From: Clostridiales bacterium
Lineage (GTDB): Bacteria; Bacillota; Clostridia; Oscillospirales; CAG-272
Direction: 5' to 3'
Assembly: GCA_016288155.1 (NCBI GenBank)
Contig: JAEEYP010000105.1
Span: forward strand, 2,746 to 66,745
Length of the DNA: 64,000 bases
The notes below the pieces were generated by a model. That model was not told where the DNA came from, made no database searches, and was given only the letters and a program-made list of their open reading frames with translations. The stretch's first letter is position 1; each line of letters opens with the position of its first letter. A program made the translations under genes and the position numbers. Positions 4,623 through 40,391 of this stretch are shown piece by piece.

Positions 4623-4748
4623 TTCACAAAACGTCCACAACTTGCGCGCTGATTTCCTGTATAATACAAGGAGAATCGACTCGCTTCGACAGAACGGAGA
4701 CAACAGCGCCCATGAAACACAGAACGCTTTTGTGCGCCGCCCTCGCGG
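4623..4748 (+). repeat. Copy A of a 126-bp dispersed repeat (promoter-like TATAAT + 5' leader + first 12 codons of a signal peptide)
   Basis: About 94% identical by eye to 6581..6706. Both begin ttcacaaaacgtccacaac and end gccgccctcgcgg. Confidence 0.9.
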
Positions 4749-4837
4749 AAATCGTTCTGCCGAAGGATCCTGTCCGGGCGATCCGCCGACCCGCGATCAA
4801 TACGGTCCGTTGCCGTTATCGGAGGTCAGTTCAATGA
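4712..4837 (+). other. 41-codon relic ORF created by repeat copy A (MKHRTLLCAALA...); its TGA overlaps the SBP start (ATGA)
   Basis: The ATG sits at the same offset (89) as the GH25 gene ATG in copy B. The sequence after codon 12 is unrelated and Arg-rich. Confidence 0.4.
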
Positions 4838-10199: not shown

Positions 10200-11201
10200 T
10201 CAGAAGAAGATCGTCCGTCCGGTCTCGATGGACTCGTTGCAGGCGAGCGTCAGCCGCAGGGACTTGACCGCCTCGCTGTAGTCCGCAAGGATCCGGGAGG
10301 TGTCGCCGGTGCGGACCGCGTGGATGAACGCCTCGTCCTGAATGCCGGTCTGTTCCTTGCCGCGCTGGAACTCCTGCACGCCGTTCTTATCGGTGATCTT
10401 CAGGCTGCTGCGGAGCTTGTACTCGAGCGTCGCGTCCGCGCAGTAGATGTTCATACCGCTCTGCATGCCGGGATCGCCGGTCTTGTAGCAGGCAGTGAAG
10501 ATCGTGCAGATCACGCCGCTCTTGAACTTGATGACCGCGGACGAGCAGTCGTGCACGTTGTAGCCGGGGACGCCGTACGCGTCGCCGTCCACGATGCCGC
10601 GCGTACCGGCGCAGTTGACGTACAGCGGCTCGCCGAAGAGATACCGCGCCTGGTCGAAGATGTGGATGTTCTGCTCCACGACCTGACCGCCGGAGGTCTC
10701 CATCCGTCTCCACCACCACACGCCGGGGATGCCGCCGTACCACGCGCCCGTTGCGAGGCCGACCTTCTTGTCCTTGATGTAGTCCTTCATGATCTGCGTC
10801 AGGTCCTGATACCGATCCTGGAATCCGGCGGCGGTGATGAGCCCCTTCGCCTTGATGAGGGACTCGATATGCTCCGCCGTCTTCATGTCGAGAGCGACCG
10901 GCTTCTCGATGAGGAACGGGATCCCCCGCTCGATGATCGCCGGCTCGATCTCACCGTGCACGTGCGGCGGGACGGCCATGAAGATGGCGTCCGGCTTCAC
11001 GCTCGCGAGCATGTCCCTGTAATCGCGGAAGATCTTCCCCGTCGGGTCGACCTGCACGCGTTCCGCGTACTTGTACGCCTTCTCTTCGTCGATATCGCAG
11101 AAGCCGACGTACTCGATGTTGTCGAGATTCTCCATGCATTTCTGGACGTGCGCGCCGTTGCGGCCGCCGCAGCCGATGAACGCAACCTTGGTTGTAGCCA
11201 T
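10200..11201 (-). CDS. Gfo/Idh/MocA family NAD(P)-dependent oxidoreductase
   Basis: VAFIGCGGRNG Rossmann motif, FLIEKP motif, RBS GGAGAGAGG. Confidence 0.85.
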   Translation of the reverse strand: MATTKVAFIGCGGRNGAHVQKCMENLDNIEYVGFCDIDEEKAYKYAERVQVDPTGKIFRDYRDMLASVKPDAIFMAVPPHVHGEIEPAIIERGIPFLIEKPVALDMKTAEHIESLIKAKGLITAAGFQDRYQDLTQIMKDYIKDKKVGLATGAWYGGIPGVWWWRRMETSGGQVVEQNIHIFDQARYLFGEPLYVNCAGTRGIVDGDAYGVPGYNVHDCSSAVIKFKSGVICTIFTACYKTGDPGMQSGMNIYCADATLEYKLRSSLKITDKNGVQEFQRGKEQTGIQDEAFIHAVRTGDTSRILADYSEAVKSLRLTLACNESIETGRTIFF

Positions 11202-11267
11202 AGTGTACCTCTCTCCTATTTTCCACCGGTCCGCCGGACCGGTTGATTCCTCAGGGCACGCGCCGCG

Positions 11268-13169
11268 TCAGAGCGAACGCAGGGTGTACAGTACGAAGCG
11301 GTCGGAGATCTCCTCGCGCGTCATGGGACGGCGGCGGAAGAGGATCCGGAAGCGGTAGGTGACGCTCTGCCCCGCCGGGATCGTGAAGCCGCCCTTGAAA
11401 TAGAGATTGTTCGCGGCGAACAGACCGTAGGCACGGATATGCCACGCCGTCGGGAAGCGCTCGTTCTTCTGCCAGTCGAAAACGGTGACGCCCATCGGAC
11501 CGACGCCCTCCGGCTCGCCGTAGTAGTCGCACCATTCCGCCGAACGGCTCCAGCACTCCGGCTCGCCGACGCCGCCCCAGGAATTGGACAGCTGACCGCA
11601 GCCGATGTCGGCGCGCAGCGGATCGCAGAGGCGGATGCCGAGCGGGCCGGCCTCCTTCGTCTTCCCGAAACGCACGTCGCCGTAGTCCGCCGTGAAGGTC
11701 ACGCACAGATCGAGCGCGCGGCACGCCTCGGACTGGTTATAGACGGTGTACTGCGTCGTCTCGGTGACGAGCGGATTCTCTTTCCCGTCCATCCAGCGGT
11801 TCCTGACGCGGAAGGTCGCGTAAGCGCTCGAGGAGAAGACCTCCTCCACTGCCTCGTTGCGCACGTATCCGAAATTGCCTTTCTCGTTCCAGCAGTCGAT
11901 CCCGTTCACGTCGCCGACGGCGATGAAGACGGAGCGCTGATGCGGATGCTCCTCGGTCCCCAGATCGAGGCGCGTGAAGGGATTCCCCTCGTCGTCCTTC
12001 ACCTGTCCGAAGAACGGCTTCGGCTGCGCTTCGCTGTACACGTAATCGGAGAAGCGGCAGCCGCCGATCGTGACTTCCAGTTTTTTCTCCTCCGGGCAGG
12101 CGCGCACGGACGGCGCTCCGGCGACCGTCTCCGTGCCGAGCGTCAGCGTCAGCGTCTCGCCCTTCTTCGCAGTAAGGACCGCAAGCAGACCCTCTTTATA
12201 CGGCGAGGCGGGGAACGTCCTGCCGCCGGCGGAGACGGAGGTCGTCTTCGGATCGACGCCGCCCCGCGCGGGGATGATATACGTCGGTTCCTCGATCAGA
12301 TCGCGGATCGGCGTGACCTCCGCCGTCTTCGCGTAGGAAAAGATCTCGCGCAGATAGACGAGCGACTTCTTTACCTCTTCCTTGAAATCGTCGAACCCGC
12401 ACTCGATGGAGACCGCGCCGTCGTATCCGCCGCGGAGGAGCGCCGACGCGAAACGGGGATTGTACGTGGGATCTCCGGCGTTCTCCCGTCCGGGAGAGGT
12501 GCGGTCCGGCGCGTCGGCGATATGGCAGTGACGGATGAGATCCATATACGGCGCGATGCCGCACGGCTTCGTCTTCTCGATCGCCATATGGAACGAATCG
12601 CAGAGCAGCAGCACGTTCGGGTGCCCCAGCGCGCGGATGCAGTCGCCGGATTCCGGAACGGTGTTGAACACGTTGCTCTCCATCTTCCGCAGCGGCTCGA
12701 TGAGCAGCGTCACGCCGTGCGCCGCCGCCGCGTCCGCCATCCGCCGCACGAAAGCGTACAGCGTCTCCCGGCTCTCTTCTTCTCTTCCCTCGACCAGGGA
12801 ACGCGCCTTGCCGCTGCCGAAGACCGCGTAGCGGACGCCGAGCTTTTCCATGATGGAAAAGAGTTTTTCCGCGCGCGCCAGATACGCGTCGTGCGGCGCG
12901 TCCGGATCGGCAAGCCGGTAATCTCCGGGGAACATGCTGTTCACGGCGCGCAGCTTCAGCGGAGACTTTGCGTTCTCCACGCACAGATACGCCACGTCCT
13001 CCTCCGTGAGATCCGCGAGCATGCCGCCCGCGCACTCCGTGCAGTCGTATCCGAGCTCAAGCAGATACCGACACTTCGCCACGATCTGCGCGGCGGGAGA
13101 TTCCGGCACGCTGCCGACGCCCTCCGGCATCAGCGACCCGCCCGGGATACAGCAACTGATCTGAATCAT
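11268..13169 (-). CDS. Fusion protein: xylose-isomerase-like TIM barrel (sugar phosphate isomerase/epimerase family) + C-terminal PmoA/DUF6807-like domain
   Basis: The N-terminal ~280 aa show the TIM-barrel pattern (LLIEPL..., HCHIAD, SIECGF). The C-terminal ~350 aa contain HPHQRS, DCWNE, WHIRAYGLFAANN and RFRILF, typical of PmoA-family proteins. Confidence 0.65.
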   Translation of the reverse strand: MIQISCCIPGGSLMPEGVGSVPESPAAQIVAKCRYLLELGYDCTECAGGMLADLTEEDVAYLCVENAKSPLKLRAVNSMFPGDYRLADPDAPHDAYLARAEKLFSIMEKLGVRYAVFGSGKARSLVEGREEESRETLYAFVRRMADAAAAHGVTLLIEPLRKMESNVFNTVPESGDCIRALGHPNVLLLCDSFHMAIEKTKPCGIAPYMDLIRHCHIADAPDRTSPGRENAGDPTYNPRFASALLRGGYDGAVSIECGFDDFKEEVKKSLVYLREIFSYAKTAEVTPIRDLIEEPTYIIPARGGVDPKTTSVSAGGRTFPASPYKEGLLAVLTAKKGETLTLTLGTETVAGAPSVRACPEEKKLEVTIGGCRFSDYVYSEAQPKPFFGQVKDDEGNPFTRLDLGTEEHPHQRSVFIAVGDVNGIDCWNEKGNFGYVRNEAVEEVFSSSAYATFRVRNRWMDGKENPLVTETTQYTVYNQSEACRALDLCVTFTADYGDVRFGKTKEAGPLGIRLCDPLRADIGCGQLSNSWGGVGEPECWSRSAEWCDYYGEPEGVGPMGVTVFDWQKNERFPTAWHIRAYGLFAANNLYFKGGFTIPAGQSVTYRFRILFRRRPMTREEISDRFVLYTLRSL

Positions 13170-14194: not shown

Positions 14195-14223
14195 ATTGCA
14201 AACGGAAACGGCGCGTGATATAA
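14195..14223 (+). promoter_or_regulatory. Promoter TTGCAA-17-TATAAT for the corrinoid methyltransferase operon
   Basis: ctaTTGCAAacggaaacggcgcgtgaTATAATtatg, about 78 nt upstream of the ATG. Confidence 0.65.
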
Positions 14224-14301
14224 TTATGAAAAGAGCGGCGGACAGAGCGGCAGCGCTCCCTGCCCGCCCCGCCGATCCGGCCCCATACCGCGGAGGACGC
14301 C

Positions 14302-15420
14302 ATGACGAACAGAGAGCGTGCGATGAACATCCTGCACTACAAGCCGGCCGACCGGCTCCCCGCCGTCCATTTCGGGTACTGGGGACAGCTCCTCGGCGAA
14401 TGGGCGGATCAGGGGAAGATCCCCCGGGAGCTGGCACAAGACAACCGCGACGGAAGCGAAAAGGAACGGGAGCTCGACCGTCTCATCGGATGGGACTTCA
14501 ACTGGTATCACTGCGTCGGCGCGAACTTCGGTCTCTCACCGCGTTTTGAGACGAAGGAACTGGAGATCCTGCCGGACGGCTCGCACCGTATCCTGAACGG
14601 CGACGGCGTCATCGAGAAGTACAAGCCCGGCGTGTCGTCCATCCCCTCGGAGGACGACTACCTTCTGAAGGACCGCGAGGCGTTCGAGACGCTGTACCGT
14701 CCGAAAATGCAGTATTCGCCGAAGCGGGTCGACTCGGAGTTCTTCCGGCATTTCAACGAAACGCGCCCGCAGGACGTCCCCGTGGGGCTCCATCTCGGCT
14801 CCGTCATGGGCGATATCCGCAACATGACCTCCGTTGTCGGCATGAGCTATCTCCTGTACGACGAGGACGAGGAATTGTTCGCCGATCTCGTCGACACGTA
14901 CGCCGAAATGCAGTACCGATGCGCCGAGGCGGTCCTCGGGTCGGGCGCGCGCTTCGATTTCGCGCATTTCTGGGAGGATATCTGCTTCAAGAACGGACCG
15001 CTCGTCGCCCCGGATTTCTTCGACGAGCTGACCGCGAAGCACTACAAAAAACGCTGCGACCTCTGCCATTCCTACGGCATAGACATCATCTCCCTCGACT
15101 GCGACGGCGTCACCGACAAGCTCCTCCCCACGTGGTTCGAGAACGGCGTCAACACGATGTTCCCCATCGAGGTCGGCGTGTGGGGCGACCAGTTCGAGGC
15201 GGCACGGAAGAGATTCGGTCCCGGCATGCGCGGCGTCGGCGGCATGGACAAAACGGCGCTCCGCGAGGACAGGGCGGCCGTCGACCGCGAGATCGAACGC
15301 ATGAAGCGGCTCGCGTCGCTCGGCGGATTCATCCCCTGCCCCGACCACCGGCTCATGCCCGGTACGAAATTCGAGCTCGTCCAGTACTACGCCGAGGAAA
15401 TCAAGAAGATCAGGATCTGA
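14302..15420 (+). CDS. Uroporphyrinogen-decarboxylase (URO-D/MtaA-CmuA) family methyltransferase
   Basis: 372 aa. The C-terminal pattern GGMDK...GGFIPCPDH and the overall layout are typical of URO-D-family corrinoid-dependent methyltransferases. Confidence 0.7.
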   Translation: MTNRERAMNILHYKPADRLPAVHFGYWGQLLGEWADQGKIPRELAQDNRDGSEKERELDRLIGWDFNWYHCVGANFGLSPRFETKELEILPDGSHRILNGDGVIEKYKPGVSSIPSEDDYLLKDREAFETLYRPKMQYSPKRVDSEFFRHFNETRPQDVPVGLHLGSVMGDIRNMTSVVGMSYLLYDEDEELFADLVDTYAEMQYRCAEAVLGSGARFDFAHFWEDICFKNGPLVAPDFFDELTAKHYKKRCDLCHSYGIDIISLDCDGVTDKLLPTWFENGVNTMFPIEVGVWGDQFEAARKRFGPGMRGVGGMDKTALREDRAAVDREIERMKRLASLGGFIPCPDHRLMPGTKFELVQYYAEEIKKIRI

Positions 15421-15471
15421 CGGCGGCGCACAGCCAGCCGATAAAGGACGATAAAGGAAAGGAAGATCGAC

Positions 15472-16122
15472 ATGAACACCGAACTGCTGAATGAGATCTC
15501 CGAAAATCTCCAGCACGGCAAAGCCAAGGTCGTAAAGGAACTCGTCCAGAAGGCCGTGGACGAGGGCATCGCGCCGGACGTCATCCTGAACGAAGGTCTG
15601 CTCTCCGGCATGAATATCATCGGCGAAAAGTTCAAGAACAACGAGGTCTACGTCCCCGAGGTGCTCGTCGCGGCGCGTGCCATGAACATGGGCGTCGGCG
15701 TCCTCAAGCCCCTGCTCGCCGAGGCGGGCGTCAAGGCGAAGGGCCGCGTCTGCATCGGGACCGTGCAGGGGGATCTGCACGATATCGGCAAAAACCTCGT
15801 AAAGCTGATGTTCGAGGGCAAGGGACTCGAGGTCATCGATCTCGGCACGGACGTCGCCCCGGAGACCTTCGTGCAGACCGCCATCGAGCAGGACTGCCAG
15901 ATCATCGCCTGCTCCGCGCTCCTGACGACGACGATGGGCGTCATGGAGGAGGTCGTGAAGAAGGCGGAGGAGGCCGGCATCCGCGATAAGGTCAAGATCA
16001 TGGTCGGCGGCGCGCCGGTGGACGAGGCGTTCTGCAAAAAGATCGGCGCGGACGCCTACACGCCGGACGCGGCGAGCGCAGCGGACAAGGCCGTCGAGTT
16101 CTGCCTCGCGGCTGCAGGCTGA
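15472..16122 (+). CDS. Corrinoid (cobalamin-binding) protein, MtaC/MtbC-like
   Basis: B12-binding cap followed by the DxHxxG motif (GDLHDIGKN) and ...GGAP.... Confidence 0.9.
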   Translation: MNTELLNEISENLQHGKAKVVKELVQKAVDEGIAPDVILNEGLLSGMNIIGEKFKNNEVYVPEVLVAARAMNMGVGVLKPLLAEAGVKAKGRVCIGTVQGDLHDIGKNLVKLMFEGKGLEVIDLGTDVAPETFVQTAIEQDCQIIACSALLTTTMGVMEEVVKKAEEAGIRDKVKIMVGGAPVDEAFCKKIGADAYTPDAASAADKAVEFCLAAAG

Positions 16123-16140
16123 GCACCGGGCGGACGATCT

Positions 16141-16716
16141 ATGGAAAACGACGCGTTGTTCGGCCGCCTGTGCGGCGAAGCCGGAGCGCTCGGCGCGTAC
16201 CGCGCGGCGGTGATCCCCGCCTCCGAGGTAGAAACGGACGCCTCTTTCCGGGATCTGTGCAAAGCGAACGTCTGCGGAAATTACGGAAAATGCTGGACCT
16301 GTCCGCCCTCCGCCGGAGAGATCGAAGAGCTCATGGCGAAGGTGCATTCCTTTTCCTTCATCCTCGTCTATCAGACGGTGAGCGATCTCGAAGACAGTTA
16401 CGATTTCGAGGGCATGGCGGCGGCGGGCGAGCGCCACGGCAGGCTGATGACCGCGCTGCGGGAAAAACTGGATCGGATAGAACTTCCGCGCCGTCTCTAC
16501 CTCGGCGCGGGCGGCTGCCGGATCTGTCCGGTCTGCGCGAAAAAGACGGACGAGCCGTGCCGGCATCCCGAAGCGGCGATCGCGTCGCTTGAGACGTACG
16601 GCGTCAACGTCTCTTCTCTGGCGAAGGCCGCCGGCATGAAGTATATCAACGGGCAGAATACCGTCACCTATTTCGGCGGGATGCTTTTCGATCTGCCCGA
16701 CGGGATACAGCCGTGA
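16141..16716 (+). CDS. DUF2284 metal-binding protein
   Basis: CKANVCGNYGKCWTCPP and CRICPVC...C Cys clusters, characteristic of DUF2284. Confidence 0.65.
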   Translation: MENDALFGRLCGEAGALGAYRAAVIPASEVETDASFRDLCKANVCGNYGKCWTCPPSAGEIEELMAKVHSFSFILVYQTVSDLEDSYDFEGMAAAGERHGRLMTALREKLDRIELPRRLYLGAGGCRICPVCAKKTDEPCRHPEAAIASLETYGVNVSSLAKAAGMKYINGQNTVTYFGGMLFDLPDGIQP

Positions 16717-16736
16717 GGTGCGGCGCGGAGTGAAGG

Positions 16737-18245
16737 ATGGCTGAGAGAACGGTAACGGTCGACGGGGTCCCGTATCCGTGCGGCGAAGGAACGCGGCTGG
16801 GCGAGCTTCTCGCCCGGATCGGCGCGCTTCCCATGCCCTGCGGAGGACACGGACGGTGCGGCAAATGCCGCGTGTGCGTCACGGGGGACGTTCTGCCGCC
16901 GGACGACCATGAAAAAAAACTCCTCGGCGCGGCAGAGACGGCGGCGGGCATCCGCCTCGCCTGCCGCGTCACGGTCACGGGGGACTGCGCGGTCACCGTC
17001 CCGCGGGAAGCGGGAGACGCGCGGATCCGCACGGACGGTACACTGCCGGATCTCACGCCGGATCCGGCTTTTTTCCGTGTCGGCGCCGCCGTAGATATCG
17101 GTACGACGACGCTGGCGGCGCGGCTTCTCGGACGGAACGGAGAAATCTTAGCGGAGACCAGCCGTCTGAATCCGCAGTCCGCCTGGGGCGCGGACGTGAT
17201 CACCCGCATGGAAGCGGCGCTCGCCGGACACGCCGGAGAACTCGCCTCCTCCGTCCGTGAAGCCGTGAACGGGATGATCCTCTCCCTGACGCGGGAGGCC
17301 GGTCTCCCGGACGGCGCCGCGGACGGCGCCGTCGTCACGGGCAACACCGCCATGCTCAGCCTGATGACGGAGACCGATACGGAACCGCTCACGCACGCGC
17401 CCTTTCTCGCGGCGCGTCTTTTCGGAGAGACCGTCCCGGCGTCCTCGCTCGGGTTCGGCTCGCTCTCGCCGGACGCATCCGTGTATTTCCCGCCCTGCGC
17501 CGGGGCGTTCGTCGGCGCGGACATGATGTGTTCTCTTCTGGCGTCGGATATCCCGCATCGGTCCGGGACGCGGCTGCTCACCGATATCGGTACGAACGGC
17601 GAGATGATCCTCTCTCACCAAGGCCGCCTCCTCGCCGCCTCGACCGCCGCCGGACCGGCATTTGAAGGCGCGGGCATCTCCATGGGGATGGGCGGACGCG
17701 GCGGCGCGATCGACCGCGTGCGGGCGGAGGACGGACGTCTGAGTGCCCGCGTGATCGGCGGCGGTGAGCCCGTCGGTATCTGCGGGAGCGGGATCGTCGA
17801 CGCCGTGGCGGCGCTGCTCGAGATCGGGGCGCTCGACGAGACCGGTTATCTGGAGAACGATCCCGCGCCGATCGCGGGGCCCGTTTCTCTGACGCAGGAC
17901 GATATCCGCATGGTGCAACTGGCGAAAAGCGCGATCCACGCCGGACTGCGGACGCTGCTCCGCACGGTCGGCGCGGGATGCGAGGAGGTCGAAGAGCTCG
18001 CCGTGGCGGGCGGCTTCGGCAGTTATCTCGATATCGGGAACGCGGGCGCGATCGGGCTTCTGCCCGCGGAGCTCCTGACGAAGGTGCGCATCCTCGGCAA
18101 CGCCGCGCTCTCCGGCGCGTCGATGCTCCTTTTGTCGGTACCGCTGCGGGGGGAGATCGAGGTCCTCGCGCGGCGCACGGAGACGGTCTCCCTCGCCGCC
18201 AATCCCACCTTCGCCGAGGAATACATGGAGCGGATGCTCTTCTGA
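16737..18245 (+). CDS. Corrinoid activation/regeneration protein (RACE/RACo-type: 2Fe-2S ferredoxin + ASKHA ATPase)
   Basis: CGGHGRCGKCRV 2Fe-2S motif. DIGTTT and TDIGTNGE are ASKHA phosphate motifs. Confidence 0.85.
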   Translation: MAERTVTVDGVPYPCGEGTRLGELLARIGALPMPCGGHGRCGKCRVCVTGDVLPPDDHEKKLLGAAETAAGIRLACRVTVTGDCAVTVPREAGDARIRTDGTLPDLTPDPAFFRVGAAVDIGTTTLAARLLGRNGEILAETSRLNPQSAWGADVITRMEAALAGHAGELASSVREAVNGMILSLTREAGLPDGAADGAVVTGNTAMLSLMTETDTEPLTHAPFLAARLFGETVPASSLGFGSLSPDASVYFPPCAGAFVGADMMCSLLASDIPHRSGTRLLTDIGTNGEMILSHQGRLLAASTAAGPAFEGAGISMGMGGRGGAIDRVRAEDGRLSARVIGGGEPVGICGSGIVDAVAALLEIGALDETGYLENDPAPIAGPVSLTQDDIRMVQLAKSAIHAGLRTLLRTVGAGCEEVEELAVAGGFGSYLDIGNAGAIGLLPAELLTKVRILGNAALSGASMLLLSVPLRGEIEVLARRTETVSLAANPTFAEEYMERMLF

Positions 18246-18305
18246 CGCGGCGGATCGGCCGCTGATAACGAAAGTCCCAAGAATTCAAGAAGTAAGGAAG
18301 ATCGT

Positions 18306-18854
18306 ATGGAACCGCCGGACGTCATGATCCTGATCGGTCAGATCCTCGGCGTGATCGCCGTGATCCTCGGGTTCGTCTCTTTCCAAATGAAGACCGCGAA
18401 GCAGGTCGTTTTCATGCAGTGCGCGGTCGCCGCCGTTTTCTGCGCGCACTATCTGTTTCTCGGAGCGATCTCGGGAGGCATTCTGAACGCGGTCTGCTTC
18501 GTGCGGAACGTCGCCTATTCCTTCAGGGACAAAAAGTTCCTGTCGGGGGTATGGGTGACCGTCTTCTTCGTCGTTCTGATGACGTGCCTGGGGATCGGGT
18601 CATGGCAGGGATGGCCTTCCCTGTTCGTGATCGTCGGCCTCGTGCTCAATACCGTTGCCATGCGGTTCAAGGATCCGCAGAACATCCGGCGCAGCATCCT
18701 CGTCACCTCGCCGCTCGTGATCATCTACGACCTGATCGTCCGCTCGTACGGCGGGATCGTCTACGAATCGGTCGTCATCGTCTCATCGATCATCGGGCTG
18801 ATCCGCGCCCGCAGAAGCGCGGGTGAGGAGACCGCCCACGCCGAAGAACAATAA
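18306..18854 (+). CDS. YgjV-family inner membrane protein
   Basis: 182 aa with about 5 TM segments. The FQMK...Q..AA..F..HY.LLGA..G..LN pattern matches the YgjV family. RBS AAGGAAG. Confidence 0.6.
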   Translation: MEPPDVMILIGQILGVIAVILGFVSFQMKTAKQVVFMQCAVAAVFCAHYLFLGAISGGILNAVCFVRNVAYSFRDKKFLSGVWVTVFFVVLMTCLGIGSWQGWPSLFVIVGLVLNTVAMRFKDPQNIRRSILVTSPLVIIYDLIVRSYGGIVYESVVIVSSIIGLIRARRSAGEETAHAEEQ

Positions 18855-18863
18855 AGCGTACAA

Positions 18864-18906
18864 GACCGCCCGAAGCATGTTCCATAGGGAAATGCTCCGG
18901 GCGGTC
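18864..18906. terminator. Long hairpin between convergent genes (probable bidirectional terminator; weak U-tracts)
   Basis: gaccgcccgaagcat / atgctccgggcggtc, a 15-bp stem with one mismatch. Confidence 0.45.
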
Positions 18907-18943
18907 TCGTTGGCTTTCCTGCCGTGTGCGTTCCGGCGCCGCG

Positions 18944-20575
18944 TCAGCCGATCTCATACAGCGCCATCTCACCGGCGTGCAGGACCTGCCGCTCCGGCTC
19001 CCGGCGATACAGCGCCTCCCCCGCAAGAGGAATCGCGCGCGGCGTTCCCCCGCCGCGAAGCGTCAGGGAGAACGGGACCGCCGCCGCCGCGTTCTGCGTC
19101 TCGCCGTCCCGCGGCGTTTTGGTAACGCCCTTGTGATTGTACAGCGCAAGATACCGGTGCGCCCCGGCTGAAAACAGCTGATAATCGAGCGCCCCGCCGT
19201 CCTCCAGCGAAAACGGGAGCGCGGCGGCGACGCGCCCGATCGCCGCGTCGGCGGCCTGCCGATCGAAGCCGTCGGCGACGTTCTCTCCGCACAGCCGCCC
19301 CGAAAAGTCGATCAGCAGCTCGTATTCCTTCTGCGGCGAGGGGTAGGAGTCGTCGTAGATCACGTCGAACAAACTTCCCCAACCGCCCGCCGCCATGATA
19401 TAGTCTTCCCCGCCGAGCTGCCGTCCGTCGTCGAAATACGCGTGGATGCGGTGCGCGAGATCCTTGAATTTTTCGTCGGCGACATCGTTCGGATAATCGG
19501 GATACCCGTCGCTGACGGAGAACATGGCGAACTCCCGCGGGATCACCGCGGCGATCGGCACGTACGGTCTCACGCCGCCGAAGCGGCGGAGATCCGCAAG
19601 AAAATCCCGCTTGATCTCCCCGTACGGACTGAGCGTGAAACTCTCCCATTCGTAAAACGTATTCGCCTGCCCCCACTCCTCCGAGAAATAGTCCGCGCCG
19701 GCGAAGAGCGAATAATACATGATCCTGCGCGCGAGCGACAGGGAGCTCCCGCCGCTGCCGTCCGTCGCCTGAAAGAGAAAATTCGAGGCGTCGAGATACC
19801 ACTCGTTGGAGCGGTCGCGCATGAACAGATAGGCGGTGCACGGAGAGCGCGCCCACGGCTCCAGATAGACGCCCCAGCGCTTGCCCCTCGATCGGGAGAC
19901 GCCGCGCCGCAGAGCGAACTGCGTCCGCGCAAAACCCGTCTGCGCGCCGACCTCGATGAACGAGGTCTCCACGTCCGCTTCCTTTTCGAGCCCGCAGAGC
20001 ATCGGTCCCGCGTCGCAGTTCAGGATCCGTCCCGCCAAGCGCCTCTGGCGATCCTTCCACATACCGAGCAGATCGCCGACGTACTCCGAGCGCGTGGTCG
20101 GCGGCGTCAGAGCGGCGTATTCCTCCGGGTACCCGTTTGAAAAATGGGGATACTCCTTATTTTTGGAAACGAGCCGGACGGCGTACAAGATATTCTCCGC
20201 CGTTCGGGACAGTCCCGTCGCGGCGAGCTGCTTTTCGATCCTCTTGTGATCGAGCGCGCGCGTCGTGCCGGATTCGTGCAGCTGAAAACCGAGGAAGCCC
20301 CCGTCCGTGATCCGGTCGTATTCGTCGGCGAGCGAAAGATCGAACGGGTACCGGGAGATGAACGTCCCGCCCTGCAGCCGGTCCACGTAAAAGCAGCCCA
20401 CCGTCTCCCTCGCCAGCTCGTACAGCGCGCCGCCGCGCCGCGCGACGGTATTGAAGCGCATCTCCTCCGGCGTCGCGAAGTGCTGGGTGATCTTGAGGCC
20501 GTCGCCCCGTCGGAGCATCCCCCGCTCTTTCAGCCCCCGGACGTACCGCGGGTTGTAGTTATGGATCCACGTCAT
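18944..20575 (-). CDS. Hypothetical 543-aa cytoplasmic protein, possibly a glycoside-hydrolase-like TIM barrel
   Basis: Long ORF with native codon bias and a perfect consensus promoter upstream. I recognise no family. Confidence 0.75.
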   Translation of the reverse strand: MTWIHNYNPRYVRGLKERGMLRRGDGLKITQHFATPEEMRFNTVARRGGALYELARETVGCFYVDRLQGGTFISRYPFDLSLADEYDRITDGGFLGFQLHESGTTRALDHKRIEKQLAATGLSRTAENILYAVRLVSKNKEYPHFSNGYPEEYAALTPPTTRSEYVGDLLGMWKDRQRRLAGRILNCDAGPMLCGLEKEADVETSFIEVGAQTGFARTQFALRRGVSRSRGKRWGVYLEPWARSPCTAYLFMRDRSNEWYLDASNFLFQATDGSGGSSLSLARRIMYYSLFAGADYFSEEWGQANTFYEWESFTLSPYGEIKRDFLADLRRFGGVRPYVPIAAVIPREFAMFSVSDGYPDYPNDVADEKFKDLAHRIHAYFDDGRQLGGEDYIMAAGGWGSLFDVIYDDSYPSPQKEYELLIDFSGRLCGENVADGFDRQAADAAIGRVAAALPFSLEDGGALDYQLFSAGAHRYLALYNHKGVTKTPRDGETQNAAAAVPFSLTLRGGGTPRAIPLAGEALYRREPERQVLHAGEMALYEIG

Positions 20576-20641
20576 CGCCGCCGTCCCTCCGTCTCATCGT
20601 TCTGCCCCGTCCGTTCTCCGTTTTCATTCCTGCCGCTTTCC

Positions 20642-20670
20642 ATTATAACCGACCGTGCCCGGTCTGTCAA
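20642..20670 (-). promoter_or_regulatory. Perfect consensus promoter TTGACA-17-TATAAT for 18944..20575
   Basis: The reverse complement reads cTTGACAgaccgggcacggtcggtTATAATgg. Confidence 0.7.
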
Positions 20671-20675
20671 GCGCT

Positions 20676-20719
20676 CGGACGATTTTGCCCGGCGTTATCG
20701 CCCCGGACGATTTGCCCGC
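20676..20719 (+). repeat. Two exact 16-bp direct repeats cggacgattttgcccg (20676-20691, 20704-20719) between divergent promoters
   Basis: Exact match read from the sequence. The period is 28 bp. Each copy lies 5-7 bp outside a -35 hexamer. Confidence 0.9.
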
Positions 20720-20726
20720 GCCGTCT

Positions 20727-20755
20727 TGTAATCCCGCGGGGAATGTGTTATAATT
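20727..20755 (+). promoter_or_regulatory. Promoter TTGTAA-17-TATAAT (TG-extended) for the homocysteine methyltransferase operon
   Basis: cTTGTAAtcccgcggggaatgtgtTATAATtac. Confidence 0.65.
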
Positions 20756-20793
20756 ACTTAAAATCATGAAGCGCGGAGCGAGGCGATTATCCG

Positions 20794-21083
20794 ATGCTCC
20801 TGCCGCACGCCGCAAAAGATCCGTTTGAAGAAGCGGACGCCGGATGGCATCTGCTCTCCTATGATAAGGCGGTCCGCGCGTCCGCTGGGAGGCGGTCGAC
20901 GGCGCGGCGGGCTATATCGTGCGCTTCGGCATCCGTCCGGGCGAGCGGCACACGCACCGGCAGGTGATCGGGAATACGGAAGCGGTCATCCGCTGCCTCA
21001 CGCGCGGCGCGACGTATTACGTGAGCGTCGATGCGTACAACGCCGGCGGCACAATCCGCGGAACGGACGTCGCGCGCATATGA
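20794..21083 (+). pseudogene. Relic of the C-terminal Fn3-like module of a larger (probably CAZyme) gene, with a +2 frameshift near 20878
   Basis: Frame 1 reads MLLPHAAKDPFEEADAGWHLLSYDKAVRA. Frame 3 continues VRWEAVDGAAGYIVRFGIRPGE...ATYYVSVDAYNAGGT..., a classic Fn3 pattern. The junction gcggtccgcGCgtccgctgg looks like a 2-nt insertion. Confidence 0.55.
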
Positions 21084-21123
21084 ACGCACCCGAATGAAAA
21101 AATACGTATACGGAGGAAATACC

Positions 21124-21975
21124 ATGAAGCAAGGCATCACCCTGATGGACGGCGCGGTCGGCACCTCGCTCTGGGCAAAAGCGGAGGCGCGCGGCTGGAA
21201 GAAGGATCCCGTGTGGCGCTACAACATCGAGCACCCGGAGATCGTGGCGGAGCTCGCCCTCGAATACGCCGACGCCGGAGCGGAGATCATTCTCGCCAAC
21301 ACCTTCGGCGCGAACGGTCCGGCGGTGAAGCGCTCCTCGTCCTTCGATCCCGCCGACGTCGTCGCCCACGGCGTGCGCACCGTCCGGGAAGCACTGCGCG
21401 GGCGCGGCGTGAAGATCGCCCTCTCCGCCGGACCGCTGTCCGCCCTCATGGAGCCCTACGGCGATCTGACCGAGGAAGATACGGCACAGATCTACCGCGG
21501 CATGCTCTCCGCGGGCGTGAAGGAAGGACCGGATATCATCCTGCTCCAGACCTTCATGGATCTCGCCATGCTCCGCGTCGCGGCGGCGGAGGCGAAGCGC
21601 TTCGATCTCCCCGTCTTCTGCTGCCTGACCTTCGAGCGGCGCGGCAAAACGATGATGGGCAACTCGGTCGGAGACATGATCGAAGAACTGACGCCGCTCG
21701 GCGTCGACGCCGTCGGCATGAACTGCTCCCTCGGCCCGGATCTGGCGCTCCCCGTCATCCGCGAATTCGCCGAGGCGACGGATCTGCCGCTCGTCTTCAA
21801 GCCGAACGCCGGCAAGCCGATCCTCTCCGCCGACGGCGGCACGACCACGGCGTACAGCGCCGAGACCTTCGCCGAAGAGATCGCCCCCGCGCTCGATATC
21901 GTCGATTACGCGGGCGGCTGCTGCGGCAGCGATCCGTCCTATATCCGCGCGCTCGCAGCCCGGATGGGAAAATGA
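21124..21975 (+). CDS. Homocysteine S-methyltransferase domain protein (stand-alone MetH-N/MmuM-like)
   Basis: MKQGITLMDGAVGTSL, ANTFGAN, and the zinc ligands GMNCS and GGCCGS. GGAGG lies 7 nt upstream. Confidence 0.85.
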   Translation: MKQGITLMDGAVGTSLWAKAEARGWKKDPVWRYNIEHPEIVAELALEYADAGAEIILANTFGANGPAVKRSSSFDPADVVAHGVRTVREALRGRGVKIALSAGPLSALMEPYGDLTEEDTAQIYRGMLSAGVKEGPDIILLQTFMDLAMLRVAAAEAKRFDLPVFCCLTFERRGKTMMGNSVGDMIEELTPLGVDAVGMNCSLGPDLALPVIREFAEATDLPLVFKPNAGKPILSADGGTTTAYSAETFAEEIAPALDIVDYAGGCCGSDPSYIRALAARMGK

Positions 21976-22006
21976 CCGTCCCCGAAACACAAAGGAGGAA
22001 AGCGGT

Positions 22007-23248
22007 ATGAACAAAAGAATGCCGAAAAACAAACTCGTCACGGGAGCGTATATCCTGCAGCCCTACGCGCAGACCGAGAAGCATATAAAAGAACTGGCGG
22101 AATGCGGCGTCGACATGGTCGTCTGTCTCCACCCGAAGGATCGGGGCGTCCTCGATCTGCTTGAAAAATATCACGTCGGCTGCGTTGTGACCGGCATCCT
22201 GCCCGGCTGGTGGGGCGGGGACGGCGCGAACGCCGGCACGATGCATGAAAAGCGTCCGCTCGCCGCCTACGAGGAAGCGGCGCGCGCCTTCGCCGATCAC
22301 CCGGCGGTCTGGGGCGTCGACATCGGCGACGAGCCGAGCGCGCTCGATTTCGACCATTACGGAAAGATCGCGCGCACGACGGAGAACGCCTTCGCCAACC
22401 AGTTCGCCTACCTCAACCTGTATCCGAGCTACGCCTCCGTCGCCTCGAATACGGAGGAGCAGACGTACTGCCAGCTCGGCACCGCGACGTACGCCGAGTA
22501 TATCGAGCGGTATATCGAAAAGATCGACCTGCCGTATCTCTGCTACGATTTCTATCCCTATCCGCTGCCGGAGCCGACAGGGATCGGGCAGATGTTCGAG
22601 AACTATCACATCGCCGCGAACGCGTGCCGCCGCACCGGGCGCGATCTCTGGTACGTTCCGCAGGTGAACGGACGCGGGGAAACGGACTTCACCTCGCTCA
22701 ACATGCTCCGCTTTCAGGCGTATACGGCGCTGTGCTACGGCGCGGCGGCGATCTTCTGGGCGTGCTATACGGGCGGCTGGTGGCACAACAACGTGCTCGA
22801 TACGGAAGGAAACAAAACCGAACAGTACGACAAACTCAAGACCGTGAACGCGGAACTGCACGCGATCGGCGGCGCGTACATGAAGTACAGAAACGTCTCC
22901 ACCCATCTCCTCGGGTACGAAGCCGATGAGTGGATGCCCTCCGCCCTCCGGGCGCTGTCGAAGCCCTCCCTCGACGCGGGGTTCGTGCGCGATCTGAAAG
23001 CCGGGGGAGCCCGGCTCGTAATCGGCGAGATGGTCGGCCGGACGGACGCGGAGGAGCGGGCGCTGTTTCTCTGCAACGCCTCGGATCCCTATGACAGGAC
23101 GCCGTCGTGCGCGGAGATCACGTTCACGTCCTTAAAGCGCAGCGTGACGATCCGCAGCGGCGACGGGGCTGCACGGCTGAGCAAAAACGGCGATGCGTAT
23201 TCCCTCTCCCTTCCCGCCGGCAGCGGCGTCCTGATCACGTTCGACTGA
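22007..23248 (+). CDS. Hypothetical protein, clan GH-A-like TIM-barrel glycoside hydrolase candidate
   Basis: 413 aa. IGDEPS (an NEP-like acid/base strand) and an aromatic-rich barrel pattern. RBS AAAGGAGG. It lies 31 nt after the preceding gene. Confidence 0.7.
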   Translation: MNKRMPKNKLVTGAYILQPYAQTEKHIKELAECGVDMVVCLHPKDRGVLDLLEKYHVGCVVTGILPGWWGGDGANAGTMHEKRPLAAYEEAARAFADHPAVWGVDIGDEPSALDFDHYGKIARTTENAFANQFAYLNLYPSYASVASNTEEQTYCQLGTATYAEYIERYIEKIDLPYLCYDFYPYPLPEPTGIGQMFENYHIAANACRRTGRDLWYVPQVNGRGETDFTSLNMLRFQAYTALCYGAAAIFWACYTGGWWHNNVLDTEGNKTEQYDKLKTVNAELHAIGGAYMKYRNVSTHLLGYEADEWMPSALRALSKPSLDAGFVRDLKAGGARLVIGEMVGRTDAEERALFLCNASDPYDRTPSCAEITFTSLKRSVTIRSGDGAARLSKNGDAYSLSLPAGSGVLITFD

Positions 23249-23275
23249 ACGCGGGATCACAGCAGAATACCGAAC

Positions 23276-23313
23276 GCCGCCGCAGGGATATGCGTCCCTG
23301 CGGCGGTCTTTTT
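23276..23313 (+). terminator. Rho-independent terminator
   Basis: gccgccgcaggga / tccctgcggcgg stem, then tcTTTTT. Confidence 0.8.
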
Positions 23314-23398: not shown

Positions 23399-23444
23399 GG
23401 AAAAAAACTTCCCAACAGATCCATATTGTCAACGGAGGCACACC

Positions 23445-24932
23445 ATGAAAAAAGCTCTGCTCTTTTTCCTCGCCGCGGCGATGCTTCTGCCGCTGTTTGT
23501 TGCCTGCTCAGATAAGCCGAGCTCCGGCACGTCCGACAAATCCGGCACTTCGACCGGCAGCGGAACGCCTTCCGTTACGGAACCGGAGGAAACGGAATAC
23601 ATCTTCCCCGACGCCGTCCCGGCCCTCGATTTCGACGGTGCGGATTTCAACATTCTCGAATCAAGCGAAAGAAACTGGTTTTACACGGACGATCTGAACG
23701 GCGAAAAGCTCAATGACGCCGTGTTCGAGCGCAACAGAAAGCTCGAGGAGCGCTTCCATATCAAGATCGCCGAGCCGGCCACCGTCGGATGGTCGGAGGT
23801 CATCAATCTCGCTTCGACGCTCGTACCGGCCGGCGACGACCAGTACGACATGGTCTCCCATCTCATGCAGCGGACGTGGAACCTCATGTCCAACGACGTG
23901 CTGCGGAACGTGCTCACGCTCCCGTACATCGACATCGACAACCCGTGGTACACGCAGGGGCTGGACGAAGCGATCATCGACGGAAAGCTGCTCTTTCTGA
24001 CGAGCGACTACACGCTCAGCTATACGGCCGCGACGGTCGTCATGTATTTCAACAAGACGAAGTGGATCGACTATATCCACTCGACAGAGGATCTGTACCA
24101 GATCGTCCGGGACGGCAAGTGGACGATCGACCGCGTGATGGAGTATTCCGTCGATCTCTACAACGACCTGAACGGCGATTCCAGAAGGGATGAGGACGAC
24201 TTCTACGGCTTCGCCGCGAACTACATCTCCAGCGTGAACGCGTGGGTCTACGGTGCAAACATGCGCCGGATCAAAATCGTCGGCGACGAGTATCTCATCG
24301 AGCAGGATATGATGAACGAGCAGCTCATTGATCTGTACACGAAACTCCGCTATCTCATGACCGAATCGAAGGGAGCCGCCGCCTTCCTCATCAGTGAACG
24401 CAACGACACCGACAACAGCGTCTTCTTCCTCAGCGGCCACGCGCTGTTCTCGTCGTTCAGCGTGGGCACGATGACGACGCCGGAGATGGTCGCCATGGAG
24501 GACGACTTCGGCGTCCTGCCGGTACCGAAATGGAACGAGGATCAGCAGGAATATTACACGAACGTCGACAACGGGACCGCCGATGTCATCGGCGTCCTGA
24601 AGACCGTAAAGGACGTCGAGCTGGTCGGCGCGGTGATCGAGTCGATGAGCGCGCTGAGCTACGAGGAGGTCGTTCCGCTCTACTGTCAGTCCGTGCTCGA
24701 GCTGCGCGGCGCGCGCGACCCGGAATCCTCCGAGATGCTCCGCATGGTCATCAACACGCGCGTGATGGACTGGGAAACGCTCTACGCCGGTTATGACGGA
24801 TGGACGACGCGCCAGAGAAAATTCGTGAACACCGCCGACTGCCCCGAGCTCGTTTCCGGCATCGTCTCGCGGCTCCAGGAGGTTCTGAACATCTACGACA
24901 GGACGATCGAGACGCTTCTCGATCTGGAATGA
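23445..24932 (+). CDS. Extracellular solute-binding lipoprotein, paralog 2 of 5
   Basis: GGAGG at 23434. MKKALLFFLAAAMLLPLFVAC lipobox. NPWY, DLNGDS and GVLPVPKW motifs are shared with the paralogs. Confidence 0.7.
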   Translation: MKKALLFFLAAAMLLPLFVACSDKPSSGTSDKSGTSTGSGTPSVTEPEETEYIFPDAVPALDFDGADFNILESSERNWFYTDDLNGEKLNDAVFERNRKLEERFHIKIAEPATVGWSEVINLASTLVPAGDDQYDMVSHLMQRTWNLMSNDVLRNVLTLPYIDIDNPWYTQGLDEAIIDGKLLFLTSDYTLSYTAATVVMYFNKTKWIDYIHSTEDLYQIVRDGKWTIDRVMEYSVDLYNDLNGDSRRDEDDFYGFAANYISSVNAWVYGANMRRIKIVGDEYLIEQDMMNEQLIDLYTKLRYLMTESKGAAAFLISERNDTDNSVFFLSGHALFSSFSVGTMTTPEMVAMEDDFGVLPVPKWNEDQQEYYTNVDNGTADVIGVLKTVKDVELVGAVIESMSALSYEEVVPLYCQSVLELRGARDPESSEMLRMVINTRVMDWETLYAGYDGWTTRQRKFVNTADCPELVSGIVSRLQEVLNIYDRTIETLLDLE

Positions 24933-27689: not shown

Positions 27690-29183
27690 TCAATGCACGC
27701 TCTGCATGTTCAGAATGCCGTCGACGATCGCGTCCATCGCCTCGATGATGGCGTCCGCCTTGCCGGAAAGCCGCGACACGATCTTGGTGTGATTGTTCTT
27801 GTCCACAAAGATCTCGCGGACGGCGCGTTCCGGCTCCTTGGCGATCGCCACGCCGAGGTCGAAGACGCGGTTGGACATGATGATGTCGAACATCTCGCCG
27901 GACTCCTGGTCGCGGGCGTACTTCGTCTTCAGGCGGATCTCGTAGTATTCGGGGATCGTGTAGCGGATCGCGTAGCTGCTCATCGCCTCGAGCACCGCCG
28001 CCATGCGGTTCACCGATTCGAGCGACGCCGGGCTCGGGAACATGCTCAGAGCGAGGTCGAGGATACGGCAGTCATACGCCTGCTGATCCTCCGAATACTT
28101 CGGATACGGGAGCACGCCGAAATCGGCGTCCATCTCGCGCATCTTGTCGATAGAGTAGAACGTGCAGTCGAGCATCAGCGCGCGGTTTTCCTGCAGCGCC
28201 GCGACGCCGGACTCGGAGATATCCCCGTCGTCCCAGTGCTTCCAGAAGGGATCGCCGTCGTACATCATCTTGATGGCGCGGTCGAGGACGTTGATGAACT
28301 CCTCGTTCATGTCGAGATCGAAGTACGGGATATCGTCCGCGTCTTTGTAGACGAGCAGCTGTCCCGCGGAGATGATGAGATCCTGCACGACCTGTCTGCC
28401 CTGTCCGTAGTAGCCCCACGCGTCGTCGTCCTTCGTCATGGCGCCGTCGCCGTTCAGATCGAAGGTGGCCTTATGACCGAACTCCGCGAATTTGTCCCAC
28501 GTCCATTTTCCGCTCCGGACGAGCTCGTACGGATCCTCGAGCGCGTAGTCCTCGATCAGCTTCTTGTTGAAGAGGATGACCGTCGTGTTGGCGTAGGAGT
28601 TGATGTTGGCGGCGCTGACGGCGGTGACGACCCTGTTGCCGACCGTCAGCTTTTCGTTGATATAATCGAACCAGTAATCCTTCGTGAAATCAAGATAATC
28701 GAGATCCGTCCAGAGGTACGCGAGCCCCTCCGCCGAATATTCGTAAATATATACGCTTCGGGTACTGCAGTACTGATACGTATCGTCGTTCGCGCGGACT
28801 GCGGCGGTCCAGTTGGCGAGGCTCGTGAAGACCTCTTCGATCTTGACGTTCAGCCGCTCGGCAACGTAAAGCTGCCGCTCATACACGGCGGACTCGTACC
28901 GGTCGGCGCTGTCCTCCTCCATCGTCATCCGCATGTCCTTGAGACCCGCGAACGTAACGGACGCGCCGCCGAAGTTGAGATCCTTCGGCAGATCGTCGAC
29001 CCATCCGGGATCGAACTCCGGCTCCGTCTCGGCGGGCTCCGTGTCGGGCGCCGCCGTTCCGGGATCGGAGGGCGTCCCGGTGCCGGAGGAGGTATCCGCG
29101 GGCGTCGACGGCTTGTCCGACGAGCACGCCGCGAGCGGGATCAGCATAAGAAGTGCCAGCATCAGCGCGAGAATGCGTTTCAT
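27690..29183 (-). CDS. Extracellular solute-binding lipoprotein, paralog 3 (tandem copy A)
   Basis: MKRILALMLALLMLIPLAAC lipobox (second ATG, 8 nt after GGAG). About two-thirds identical by eye to paralog 4. Confidence 0.75.
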   Translation of the reverse strand: MKRILALMLALLMLIPLAACSSDKPSTPADTSSGTGTPSDPGTAAPDTEPAETEPEFDPGWVDDLPKDLNFGGASVTFAGLKDMRMTMEEDSADRYESAVYERQLYVAERLNVKIEEVFTSLANWTAAVRANDDTYQYCSTRSVYIYEYSAEGLAYLWTDLDYLDFTKDYWFDYINEKLTVGNRVVTAVSAANINSYANTTVILFNKKLIEDYALEDPYELVRSGKWTWDKFAEFGHKATFDLNGDGAMTKDDDAWGYYGQGRQVVQDLIISAGQLLVYKDADDIPYFDLDMNEEFINVLDRAIKMMYDGDPFWKHWDDGDISESGVAALQENRALMLDCTFYSIDKMREMDADFGVLPYPKYSEDQQAYDCRILDLALSMFPSPASLESVNRMAAVLEAMSSYAIRYTIPEYYEIRLKTKYARDQESGEMFDIIMSNRVFDLGVAIAKEPERAVREIFVDKNNHTKIVSRLSGKADAIIEAMDAIVDGILNMQSVH

Positions 29184-29242
29184 CGTCATATCTCCTTTGA
29201 ATACGGCAGGATCCGCCGTTTTTTCTTCAATGCGCCGCCGTC

Positions 29243-30715: not shown

Positions 30716-30820
30716 GGGATATCCCCTTTTCATAAACAAAATGGAAATGGAGATCGTATGCGCTCTCCGCGCGGCGCCGGGGAAACGGCAAAAGCGCATA
30801 CGGCGCATAAATACACGTTT

Positions 30821-30849
30821 ATTATACCGCCGTACCGCCGTCCTGTCAA
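30821..30849 (-). promoter_or_regulatory. Perfect consensus promoter TTGACA-17-TATAAT for the tandem SBP genes (about 100-nt leader)
   Basis: The reverse complement reads aacTTGACAggacggcggtacggcggTATAATaaa. Confidence 0.7.
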
Positions 30850-30893
30850 GTTTTTTCGCATCGTCCGCGCGGGTATTTCGGCGGGATCGGCAG

Positions 30894-30929
30894 CAAAAAA
30901 GGCGGAGCAGGGTCGCTCCCTGCTCCGCC
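30894..30929 (-). terminator. Rho-independent terminator after 30951..31595
   Basis: ggcggagcaggg / ccctgctccgcc stem, followed on the minus strand by TTTTTT. Confidence 0.85.
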
Positions 30930-30950
30930 GGCAATGCAAACGGATCCGTC

Positions 30951-39428: not shown

Positions 39429-39520
39429 ACCTGTCGTCACGGATTTGCGCGGACCGAGCCGCACGCGGGGGGAACGTCTATATTATATCATTTTTCGACC
39501 CGTTTGTACAGATGTTTTTT

Positions 39521-40345: not shown

Positions 40346-40391
40346 CGGCGTTCCCTCCTTCCTCCCGCCGTCCGGCGGGAGTCTTTGTGCC

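Follow-up and report, generated by a model that had tools for sequence, protein, structure and literature searches.

A predicted corrinoid-dependent demethylase module putatively coupled to a stand-alone MetH-type homocysteine methyltransferase in gut Clostridia

A 64 kb stretch of the genome of a Clostridiales bacterium (assembly GCA_016288155.1, contig JAEEYP010000105.1; hereafter the window) carries an operon coding for a URO-D family protein, a corrinoid protein, a DUF2284 protein and a RACo/RamA-type reductive activase, and, further downstream, a separate gene for a stand-alone homocysteine methyltransferase domain (Table 1). We propose that these five proteins may form a multi-component corrinoid-dependent demethylase that delivers the methyl group of its substrate to homocysteine, a reading to which we give a probability of about one half. 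In such a system, the 372-aa URO-D protein would act as the donor-side methyltransferase (MT1): it would demethylate its substrate, probably an O-methyl ether, and methylate the 216-aa corrinoid protein in the cob(I) state. RACo would re-reduce oxidised Co(II) using ATP, with DUF2284 as its probable metal or iron-sulfur accessory. The acceptor-side methyltransferase (MT2) would be an MtaA-like His-Cys-Cys enzyme in most related species and the stand-alone MetH-type barrel in this lineage, giving overall R-O-CH3 + homocysteine -> R-OH + methionine with no involvement of folate. Candidates for the donor are methoxylated phenolics and O-methylated sugars from plants. The evidence presented below covers domain identities, folds, motifs, gene neighbourhoods and the finding that the two MT2 candidates exclude each other; that the methyl group travels in this direction, that homocysteine accepts it and that the donor is an O-methyl compound is inferred.

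The URO-D protein belongs to a very large family: its homologues make up over 5,000 protein clusters, clustering of the wider family at the 50% level leaves 1,935 representatives, and hits were obtained in at least 581 stretches of species-representative genomes. Identities within the family are 75-85% among Clostridia of gut and rumen. The best 120 homologues are 77-85% identical and are spread across Oscillospiraceae, Acutalibacteraceae and Lachnospiraceae, and the samples from which homologues derive include rumen, goat, sheep, deer, mouse and human. The window protein itself has no NCBIfam match and, in a sequence search against solved structures, no match at E<=10; the family profile gives weak matches only, to UROD, MtaA and CdmB. 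Its structure model (pLDDT 71) is closest to MtaA of M. mazei and to uroporphyrinogen decarboxylases. Residues R142, E225, D226, D266, D268-G269, E290 and D348-H349 are conserved family-wide, and the family alignment holds no conserved Cys.

We aligned these motifs with those of the MtaA-like proteins, the CmuA N-terminal domain and the MT I of D. hafniense, Dhaf4610, whose sequence was taken from the supplement of PMC9930637. The zinc site of MtaA, H-x-C...C, corresponds to D-x-D...D-H in the URO-D protein (Asp266-x-Asp268...Asp348-His349), and the same columns read H-x-D in Dhaf4610. S- and Se-methyltransferases of the UroD superfamily retain His-Cys-Cys, whereas the O-methyltransferases carry carboxylates or non-ligands instead of Cys (PMC10418091). 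By this rule, the carboxylate metal site makes the URO-D protein look like a donor-side O-demethylase methyltransferase, albeit an unusual one, and the same signature suggests that the donor carries an O-methyl group. The protein does not belong with the MtaA/MtbA-type coenzyme M (CoM) methyltransferases or the type 1 Mlp proteins, which have a His-Cys-Cys zinc site: it has no NCBIfam match and no conserved Cys, and that site is seen only in a 329-339-aa partner present in relatives. Its homology to Dhaf4610 is distant (24% identity over 187 residues of the C-terminal half, E=2e-6 in a small database). Given this distant relationship to a characterised aromatic O-demethylase, an aromatic substrate is at least as likely as a sugar.

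The corrinoid protein consists of a B12 cap and a Rossmann domain (PF02607, PF02310), with the DxHxxG motif present as GDLHDIG, and is 49% identical to Dhaf4611, the corrinoid protein of the D. hafniense O-demethylase. RACo is full length, with 2Fe-2S, middle and ASKHA domains. DUF2284 is co-conserved with RACo across related modules, and a literature search on this family returned nothing functional. We scanned about 60 open reading frames (ORFs) of the window with domain profiles and identified no pterin-binding, MttB, MtaB or MetH-activation (PF02965) domain, in agreement with what a first, sequence-only reading of this DNA had stated. Its suggestion that a RACE-type activator replaces S-adenosylmethionine (AdoMet)-dependent reactivation is likewise supported, since PF02965 is absent from the window while RACo is present, and a precedent has been published (PMC5764234). 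YgjV, the last gene of the operon, was rejected as a component of the module, having no homologue in the 80 related loci described below.

Compared with solved structures, the 283-aa homocysteine protein scores best against the T. maritima MetH homocysteine domain (E=1.4e-38), as against E ~1e-12 for BHMT and 4.5e-9 for the E. coli-type S-methylmethionine enzyme (HMT, 5dml). In the alignment with that MetH, the GMNCS and GGCCGS motifs of the 283-aa protein coincide with the zinc cysteines, and all three Cys are kept. The best NCBIfam score is to the YitJ-type N-terminal model (5e-49, below the cut-off), with PRK09485 at 5.8e-19. By these pairwise and profile scores the protein is MetH-like, and its membership of the MmuM/YbgG enzymes, which the sequence-only reading had named as a possible outcome, is therefore not borne out. 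The family is made up of stand-alone proteins of 281-285 aa in Clostridia metagenome-assembled genomes, and the window member is predicted to be a methyl-corrinoid:homocysteine methyltransferase, that is, an MT2.

Gene context provides the link between this protein and the corrinoid module. We found orthologues of the 283-aa protein linked to seven modules, in seven different arrangements. In three of these, the gene lies within the operon: between the URO-D and corrinoid-protein genes (L096), immediately 3' of RACo (L109), or in the order 458-aa protein, homocysteine methyltransferase, corrinoid protein, DUF2284 and RACo, the first two genes overlapping by 4 nt (L015). In the other four it is located 0.1-3 kb from the module, either downstream of it (past YgjV and an opposite-strand gene in the window, past two other opposite-strand genes in L101), convergent with it at ~100 nt (L099), or 2.2 kb away (L009). 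The B12-binding protein, encoded 5 kb upstream of the homocysteine gene in the window, is its direct neighbour in the same operon in L015 and L096. An MtaA-like gene is present in none of the seven homocysteine-linked modules, and the homocysteine gene in none of the 50 modules that have an MtaA-like gene (Fisher's test p ~1e-4, a value that is indicative only because the sampling is mixed). The corrinoid-to-homocysteine route that had been proposed from the sequence draws its main support from this replacement of one gene by another in a single functional slot. Gene context speaks well for a link between the corrinoid module and the homocysteine domain, to which we give an even chance or slightly more.

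The 80 loci, onto which we mapped the window proteins and their paralogues, come from species-representative genomes. The corrinoid protein is present in 35 of them and a fusion of an AraC-type regulator with a B12-binding protein (AraC::B12) in 29; as one locus has both, 63 possess one or the other. DUF2284 occurs in 53 loci and RACo in 48. An MtaA-like canonical URO-D protein of 329-339 aa, which keeps H-x-C...C and has methylcobalamin:CoM methyltransferase as its best NCBIfam match, was identified in 50. Modules contain zero to four extra O-type URO-D paralogues and at most one S-type methyltransferase. The simplest reading is that several donor-side methyltransferases, including the 372-aa protein, share one corrinoid protein, one activase and one thiol-type acceptor methyltransferase.

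Three further features of these modules were observed. In the AraC::B12 fusion, a regulator with cupin and helix-turn-helix domains is joined to a complete B12 cap and B12-binding domain and fills the slot of the corrinoid protein (L001:7318-8892; also L031, L035, L055, L058, L059, L062, L080 and others); it might combine the role of methyl carrier with that of a regulator responsive to the state of the corrinoid. A family of ~410-460 aa without Pfam or NCBIfam match recurs within corrinoid modules (L015:8628-10004, 458 aa; also L025, L032, L045, L047, L064 and L094) and is a candidate for a further family of substrate methyltransferases. Its 458-aa member is encoded directly 5' of the homocysteine methyltransferase in L015; homology of this protein to the 413-aa or 543-aa proteins of the window was considered and rejected, as none was detected. 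The commonest non-core neighbour of the modules is a TlpA/redoxin-type thioredoxin-like lipoprotein, present in nine loci (e.g. L069:15216-15815).

In this lineage, the homocysteine gene belongs to a glycoside-hydrolase operon. A syntenic relative (L174, 87-88% DNA identity to the window) has an intact 557-aa GH43 gene (L174:1715-3388) directly upstream of the homocysteine gene and in the same orientation, of which the window remnant keeps residues ~300-335 and 490-557, frameshifted; the ancestral operon therefore comprised GH43, the homocysteine methyltransferase and the clan-GH-A-like protein. The promoter that the sequence-only reading had placed upstream of the homocysteine gene is present, while the ~365-nt 'leader' following it, which we considered as a riboswitch or T-box, turned out to be this GH43 remnant. 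The 413-aa protein encoded after the homocysteine gene, and predicted to be co-transcribed with it, has no Pfam, NCBIfam or PDB sequence match. Its structure model shows a TIM barrel followed by a beta-sandwich (pLDDT 91.5), with clan GH-A hydrolases of families GH30, GH66, GH35 and GH2 as best structural neighbours, so that the original label of 'GH-like' is right. It is not a constant partner of the homocysteine gene, as the two are together only in the closest relative, L174, and unlinked in L175 and L176.

We could not deduce a substrate from conserved neighbours of the corrinoid module, since its flanks are heterogeneous; the glycan setting applies to the homocysteine gene of this lineage and is not conserved for the module across species. 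The 362 flanking proteins form 254 clusters, and 120 flanking representatives match 153 Pfam families, to which GH32, GH116, GH13, GH2 and GH16 contribute a modest share only; no glycoside-hydrolase family or transporter recurs among the flanking proteins of the 80 loci, and no pterin-binding family is among the 25 most frequent Pfam families of the 120 neighbour proteins. The glycan-operon facts keep an O-methyl-sugar donor possible, without favouring sugars over methoxylated aromatics, and a glycan origin of the donor is speculative. A more specific scenario would be a folate-free 'core MetH' of gut and rumen Oscillospiraceae, in which a new kind of UroD enzyme with an Asp-Asp-His site demethylates O-methyl plant sugars (4-O-methyl-glucuronate, 2-O-methyl-xylose or 2-O-methyl-fucose) freed by the co-transcribed glycoside hydrolases, and the stand-alone homocysteine barrel turns these methyl groups directly into methionine. 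We consider it distinctly improbable; if true, it would be the first anaerobic corrinoid-dependent sugar demethylation. A non-exhaustive literature search found no account of corrinoid-dependent sugar demethylation, only P450-based aerobic systems.

Several observations weigh against the proposal that the module delivers methyl groups to homocysteine. The homocysteine gene of the window stands outside the corrinoid operon, the two units being separated by 3 kb and an opposite-strand gene. About 8 of the ~15 orthologues with usable flanks, roughly half, have no corrinoid genes nearby; in one metagenome-assembled genome, the module (L020) and the homocysteine gene (L012) are on separate contigs, near their ends. 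Neither the homocysteine gene of the window nor its counterparts in 11 related loci are preceded by a SAM, T-box or cobalamin riboswitch that would point to a role in methionine biosynthesis. Confidence in the URO-D structure model is moderate. In 14 of the 80 loci, the URO-D orthologue is an orphan with no corrinoid protein, DUF2284 or RACo nearby (L021, L050, L090, L095 and ten others), a poor fit to a strictly modular operon, the surrounding DNA reaching 10 kb on both sides in 3 of the 14 only and several contigs being short. Seven of the 80 loci have a RACo-containing module with neither MT2 candidate in the available flank. Finally, stoichiometric disposal of methyl groups as methionine would be awkward if the substrate were a bulk carbon source.

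The two units might instead be unrelated, the 283-aa protein being an S-methylmethionine/AdoMet-dependent MmuM/YbgG-like scavenger of plant S-methylmethionine and the corrinoid module using an MT2 encoded elsewhere. This would account for a stand-alone protein of MmuM-like size whose best NCBIfam match is to a YitJ-type N-terminal domain, below cut-off, whose gene is in a glycoside-hydrolase operon and not in the corrinoid operon, and about half of whose orthologues are away from corrinoid genes. We nevertheless regard it as unlikely, since the protein is far closer to the MetH domain than to HMT/MmuM (1e-38 vs 4e-9, and only 5.8e-19 for PRK09485), its gene is found inside corrinoid operons in three lineages and beside them in four more, and it never occurs together with an MtaA-like MT2. 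An alternative of a different kind is a housekeeping split methionine synthase, in which the URO-D protein would replace the pterin module and load the methyl group of methyl-tetrahydrofolate, the homocysteine barrel finishing methionine. The parts do mirror the split MetH of Phaeobacter and Ruegeria (PMC5764234, PMC12478193), and no metH or metE gene lies within the window; yet the URO-D orthologue pairs with an MtaA-like protein and no homocysteine domain in 50 of the 80 loci, several O-type paralogues per module suit varied donors and not a single folate, no methionine-type riboswitch was found, and our literature search returned no UroD-superfamily methyl-folate:corrinoid methyltransferase. 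We consider this explanation very improbable.

The strongest competitor is an ordinary aromatic O-demethylase like those of Desulfitobacterium and Acetobacterium, which would cleave phenyl methyl ethers whose methoxy groups stem from lignin or flavonoids, with the glycan context as incidental. The 49% identity of the corrinoid protein to Dhaf4611 and the homology of the URO-D protein and its paralogues to Dhaf4610 point in this direction, as do the several MT1 paralogues per corrinoid protein and activase, which resemble known O-demethylase gene sets, the herbivore-gut origin of the hosts, and module flanks that are not consistently glycan-related. On the other hand, the identity to Dhaf4610 is only 24% and limited to the C-terminal half, with the site-1 His replaced by Asp, no pterin-type MT II was found among the scanned ORFs of the window, and the acceptor enzymes are thiol-type (His-Cys-Cys or Cys3 zinc), unlike those of described bacterial O-demethylases. 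We view such an enzyme as a genuine possibility, if short of an even chance.

A demethylase feeding homocysteine, as we propose, would share parts with several described systems. The aromatic O-demethylases of D. hafniense and Acetobacterium dehalogenans (Dhaf4610/OdmB/VdmB, Dhaf4611, MT II and an activating enzyme) likewise combine a UroD-superfamily MT1 with a carboxylate metal site, a small corrinoid protein of the His-on type, a RACE-type activase and several MT1 paralogues per system. They differ in the metal site and sequence of the MT1 as described above, and in further respects: the window module includes DUF2284, it shows no MT II of the pterin type that forms methyl-tetrahydrofolate, on the acceptor side it has a MetH-type homocysteine barrel, whose place is taken in relatives by an MtaA-like His-Cys-Cys protein, and it occurs in gut Oscillospiraceae, Acutalibacteraceae and Lachnospiraceae that are not model organisms. 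Genetic work on Phaeobacter has shown a split MetH in which the homocysteine subunit and the corrinoid protein stand alone and the activase is RamA-like (PMC5764234); in Ruegeria, glycine-betaine demethylation and methionine synthesis share one corrinoid protein (PMC12478193). The MtgBCDE/split MetH systems of Phaeobacter inhibens and Ruegeria pomeroyi resemble the window in the stand-alone homocysteine subunit and corrinoid protein, in the RamA-like activase that replaces the AdoMet domain, and in a corrinoid protein shared with a demethylation route; the idea of a single corrinoid protein supplying both processes is thus already described in roseobacters. The roseobacter systems have a pterin-binding subunit (MtgD), an MttB-family MT1 for glycine betaine and the accessory DUF1638, and belong to aerobic Alphaproteobacteria, whereas in the window we found no pterin module, a UroD-type MT1 and the accessory DUF2284, in strictly anaerobic hosts.

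For core methionine synthases of the MetE type, corrinoid proteins are the predicted direct source of methyl groups (PMC7857596). MesA, MesB and MesC are similar to the system proposed here in that homocysteine would be methylated from a methylated corrinoid protein, bypassing folate, but they are MetE-type barrels fed by MtrA or by the Wood-Ljungdahl pathway's corrinoid iron-sulfur protein, while the window protein is a MetH-type barrel (PF02574) whose putative donor is a demethylase corrinoid protein. Type 1 mlp clusters contain several UroD-type methyltransferases, a corrinoid protein and an activase, and share with the window the absence of a folate methyltransferase (Kountz and Balskus preprint, PMC10418091). 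The Mlp proteins are ~30% identical to methanogen CoM methyltransferases, keep His-Cys-Cys and have been assigned to methyl-sulfur or methyl-selenium metabolism; the window URO-D protein, without Cys ligands, is unlike them, and only the MtaA-like partner of its relatives resembles them. From each of these systems the present one differs: it lacks a pterin module, includes DUF2284, has a UroD enzyme of the O-type on the donor side and a MetH-type barrel seemingly interchangeable with an MtaA-like enzyme, and belongs to anaerobic gut Clostridia. We found no description of this set of components in a non-exhaustive literature search.

If the coupling is real, common non-acetogenic Clostridia of the gut and rumen would turn dietary methoxy groups directly into methionine, and, in the MtaA-like version of the module, into another methylated thiol. 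The breakdown of plant fibre and polyphenols would then be linked to the supply of sulfur amino acids and to the demand for B12 in the gut. The locus also draws attention to a family of UroD-type methyltransferases that is very large, highly conserved and so far unstudied, and offers a defined five-protein set for reconstitution.

The genes, motifs, promoters and terminator listed by the sequence-only reading were all recovered at the same positions by ORF calling and profile searches (Table 1).

Table 1. Features of the corrinoid operon, the homocysteine-methyltransferase operon and their surroundings (window coordinates)
Feature	Position	Strand	Evidence and remarks
Promoter-like site of the corrinoid operon	14196..14224	+	TTGCAA, 17 nt spacer, TATAAT, extended TG; consensus match only
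URO-D family protein, 372 aa	14302..15420	+	PF01208 E=6e-8, C-terminal half only
Corrinoid protein, 216 aa	15472..16122	+	B12-binding_2 E=1e-20; B12-binding E=3e-26; motif GDLHDIG
DUF2284, Cys-rich metal-binding protein	16141..16716	+	E=9e-45
RACo/RamA-type ATP-dependent reductive activase	16737..18245	+	Fer2, Raco_middle, RACo_C_ter E=2e-63; CGGHGRCGKC, DIGTTT
YgjV-family membrane protein, last gene of the corrinoid operon	18306..18854	+	E=1e-34
543-aa protein between the two operons	18944..20575	-	No family match; 90% identity in syntenic relative L174
Promoter-like site of the GH43/homocysteine-methyltransferase operon	20726..20754	+	TTGTAA, 17 nt spacer, TATAAT, TG; consensus match
GH43 gene remnant, frameshifted and internally deleted	20779..21080	+	F5/8-type-C and FN3-like domains; comparison with L174
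Stand-alone MetH-type homocysteine-binding barrel, 283 aa	21124..21975	+	PF02574 E=3e-49; Cys3 zinc site
Clan-GH-A-like TIM barrel plus beta-sandwich, 413 aa	22007..23248	+	Predicted structure; starts 31 nt after the homocysteine gene
Intrinsic-terminator-like hairpin	23276..23307	+	14 pairs, then T run
Solute-binding-protein-like lipoprotein, ~497 aa	23439..24932	+	Preceded by a promoter-like site of its own (23370); member of a set of paralogues encoded in the window

Some further observations concern homocysteine methyltransferase genes in other settings. One orthologue unlinked to a corrinoid module (in one of L102, L103, L104, L105, L108, L111, L112, L113 and L012) is near the cobalamin lower-ligand genes CobT/DBI_PRT and CobS, and several other unlinked orthologues are found among oxidative-stress genes (glutathione peroxidase, rubrerythrin, AhpC). 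A 393-aa homocysteine methyltransferase (L006:5524-6705 = L028:4338-5516), whose gene overlaps the end of a GH13 amylase gene, is 33% identical to the window protein, has ~100 extra C-terminal residues and is encoded at a distance of 4.5 kb from a URO-D orthologue that is an orphan.

Just upstream of the corrinoid operon (window 10200-13169, minus strand), a Gfo/Idh/MocA oxidoreductase adjoins a 633-aa protein in which a xylose-isomerase-like TIM barrel is fused to DUF6807, a pairing that brings to mind pathways for the cleavage of 3-keto-glycosides or C-glycosides; in L009, an AP_endonuc_2 gene of similar kind lies beside the homocysteine gene. None of the scanned ORFs of the window codes for an ABC permease. 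At least five paralogous solute-binding-protein-like lipoproteins of ~500 aa are encoded there (4642-6297, 23439-24932, 27690-29300, 29243-30934 and 59992-61731), and the same family is also multiplied around the orphan URO-D genes of L004 and L021. The window is clostridial in appearance and its G+C content is ~62%, with 0.56-0.67 in all composition blocks except that of 40001-42000, where it falls to 0.535; this low-G+C stretch (39500-42100) contains a 511-aa ORF (40578-42113) coding for a BspA-type leucine-rich-repeat protein.

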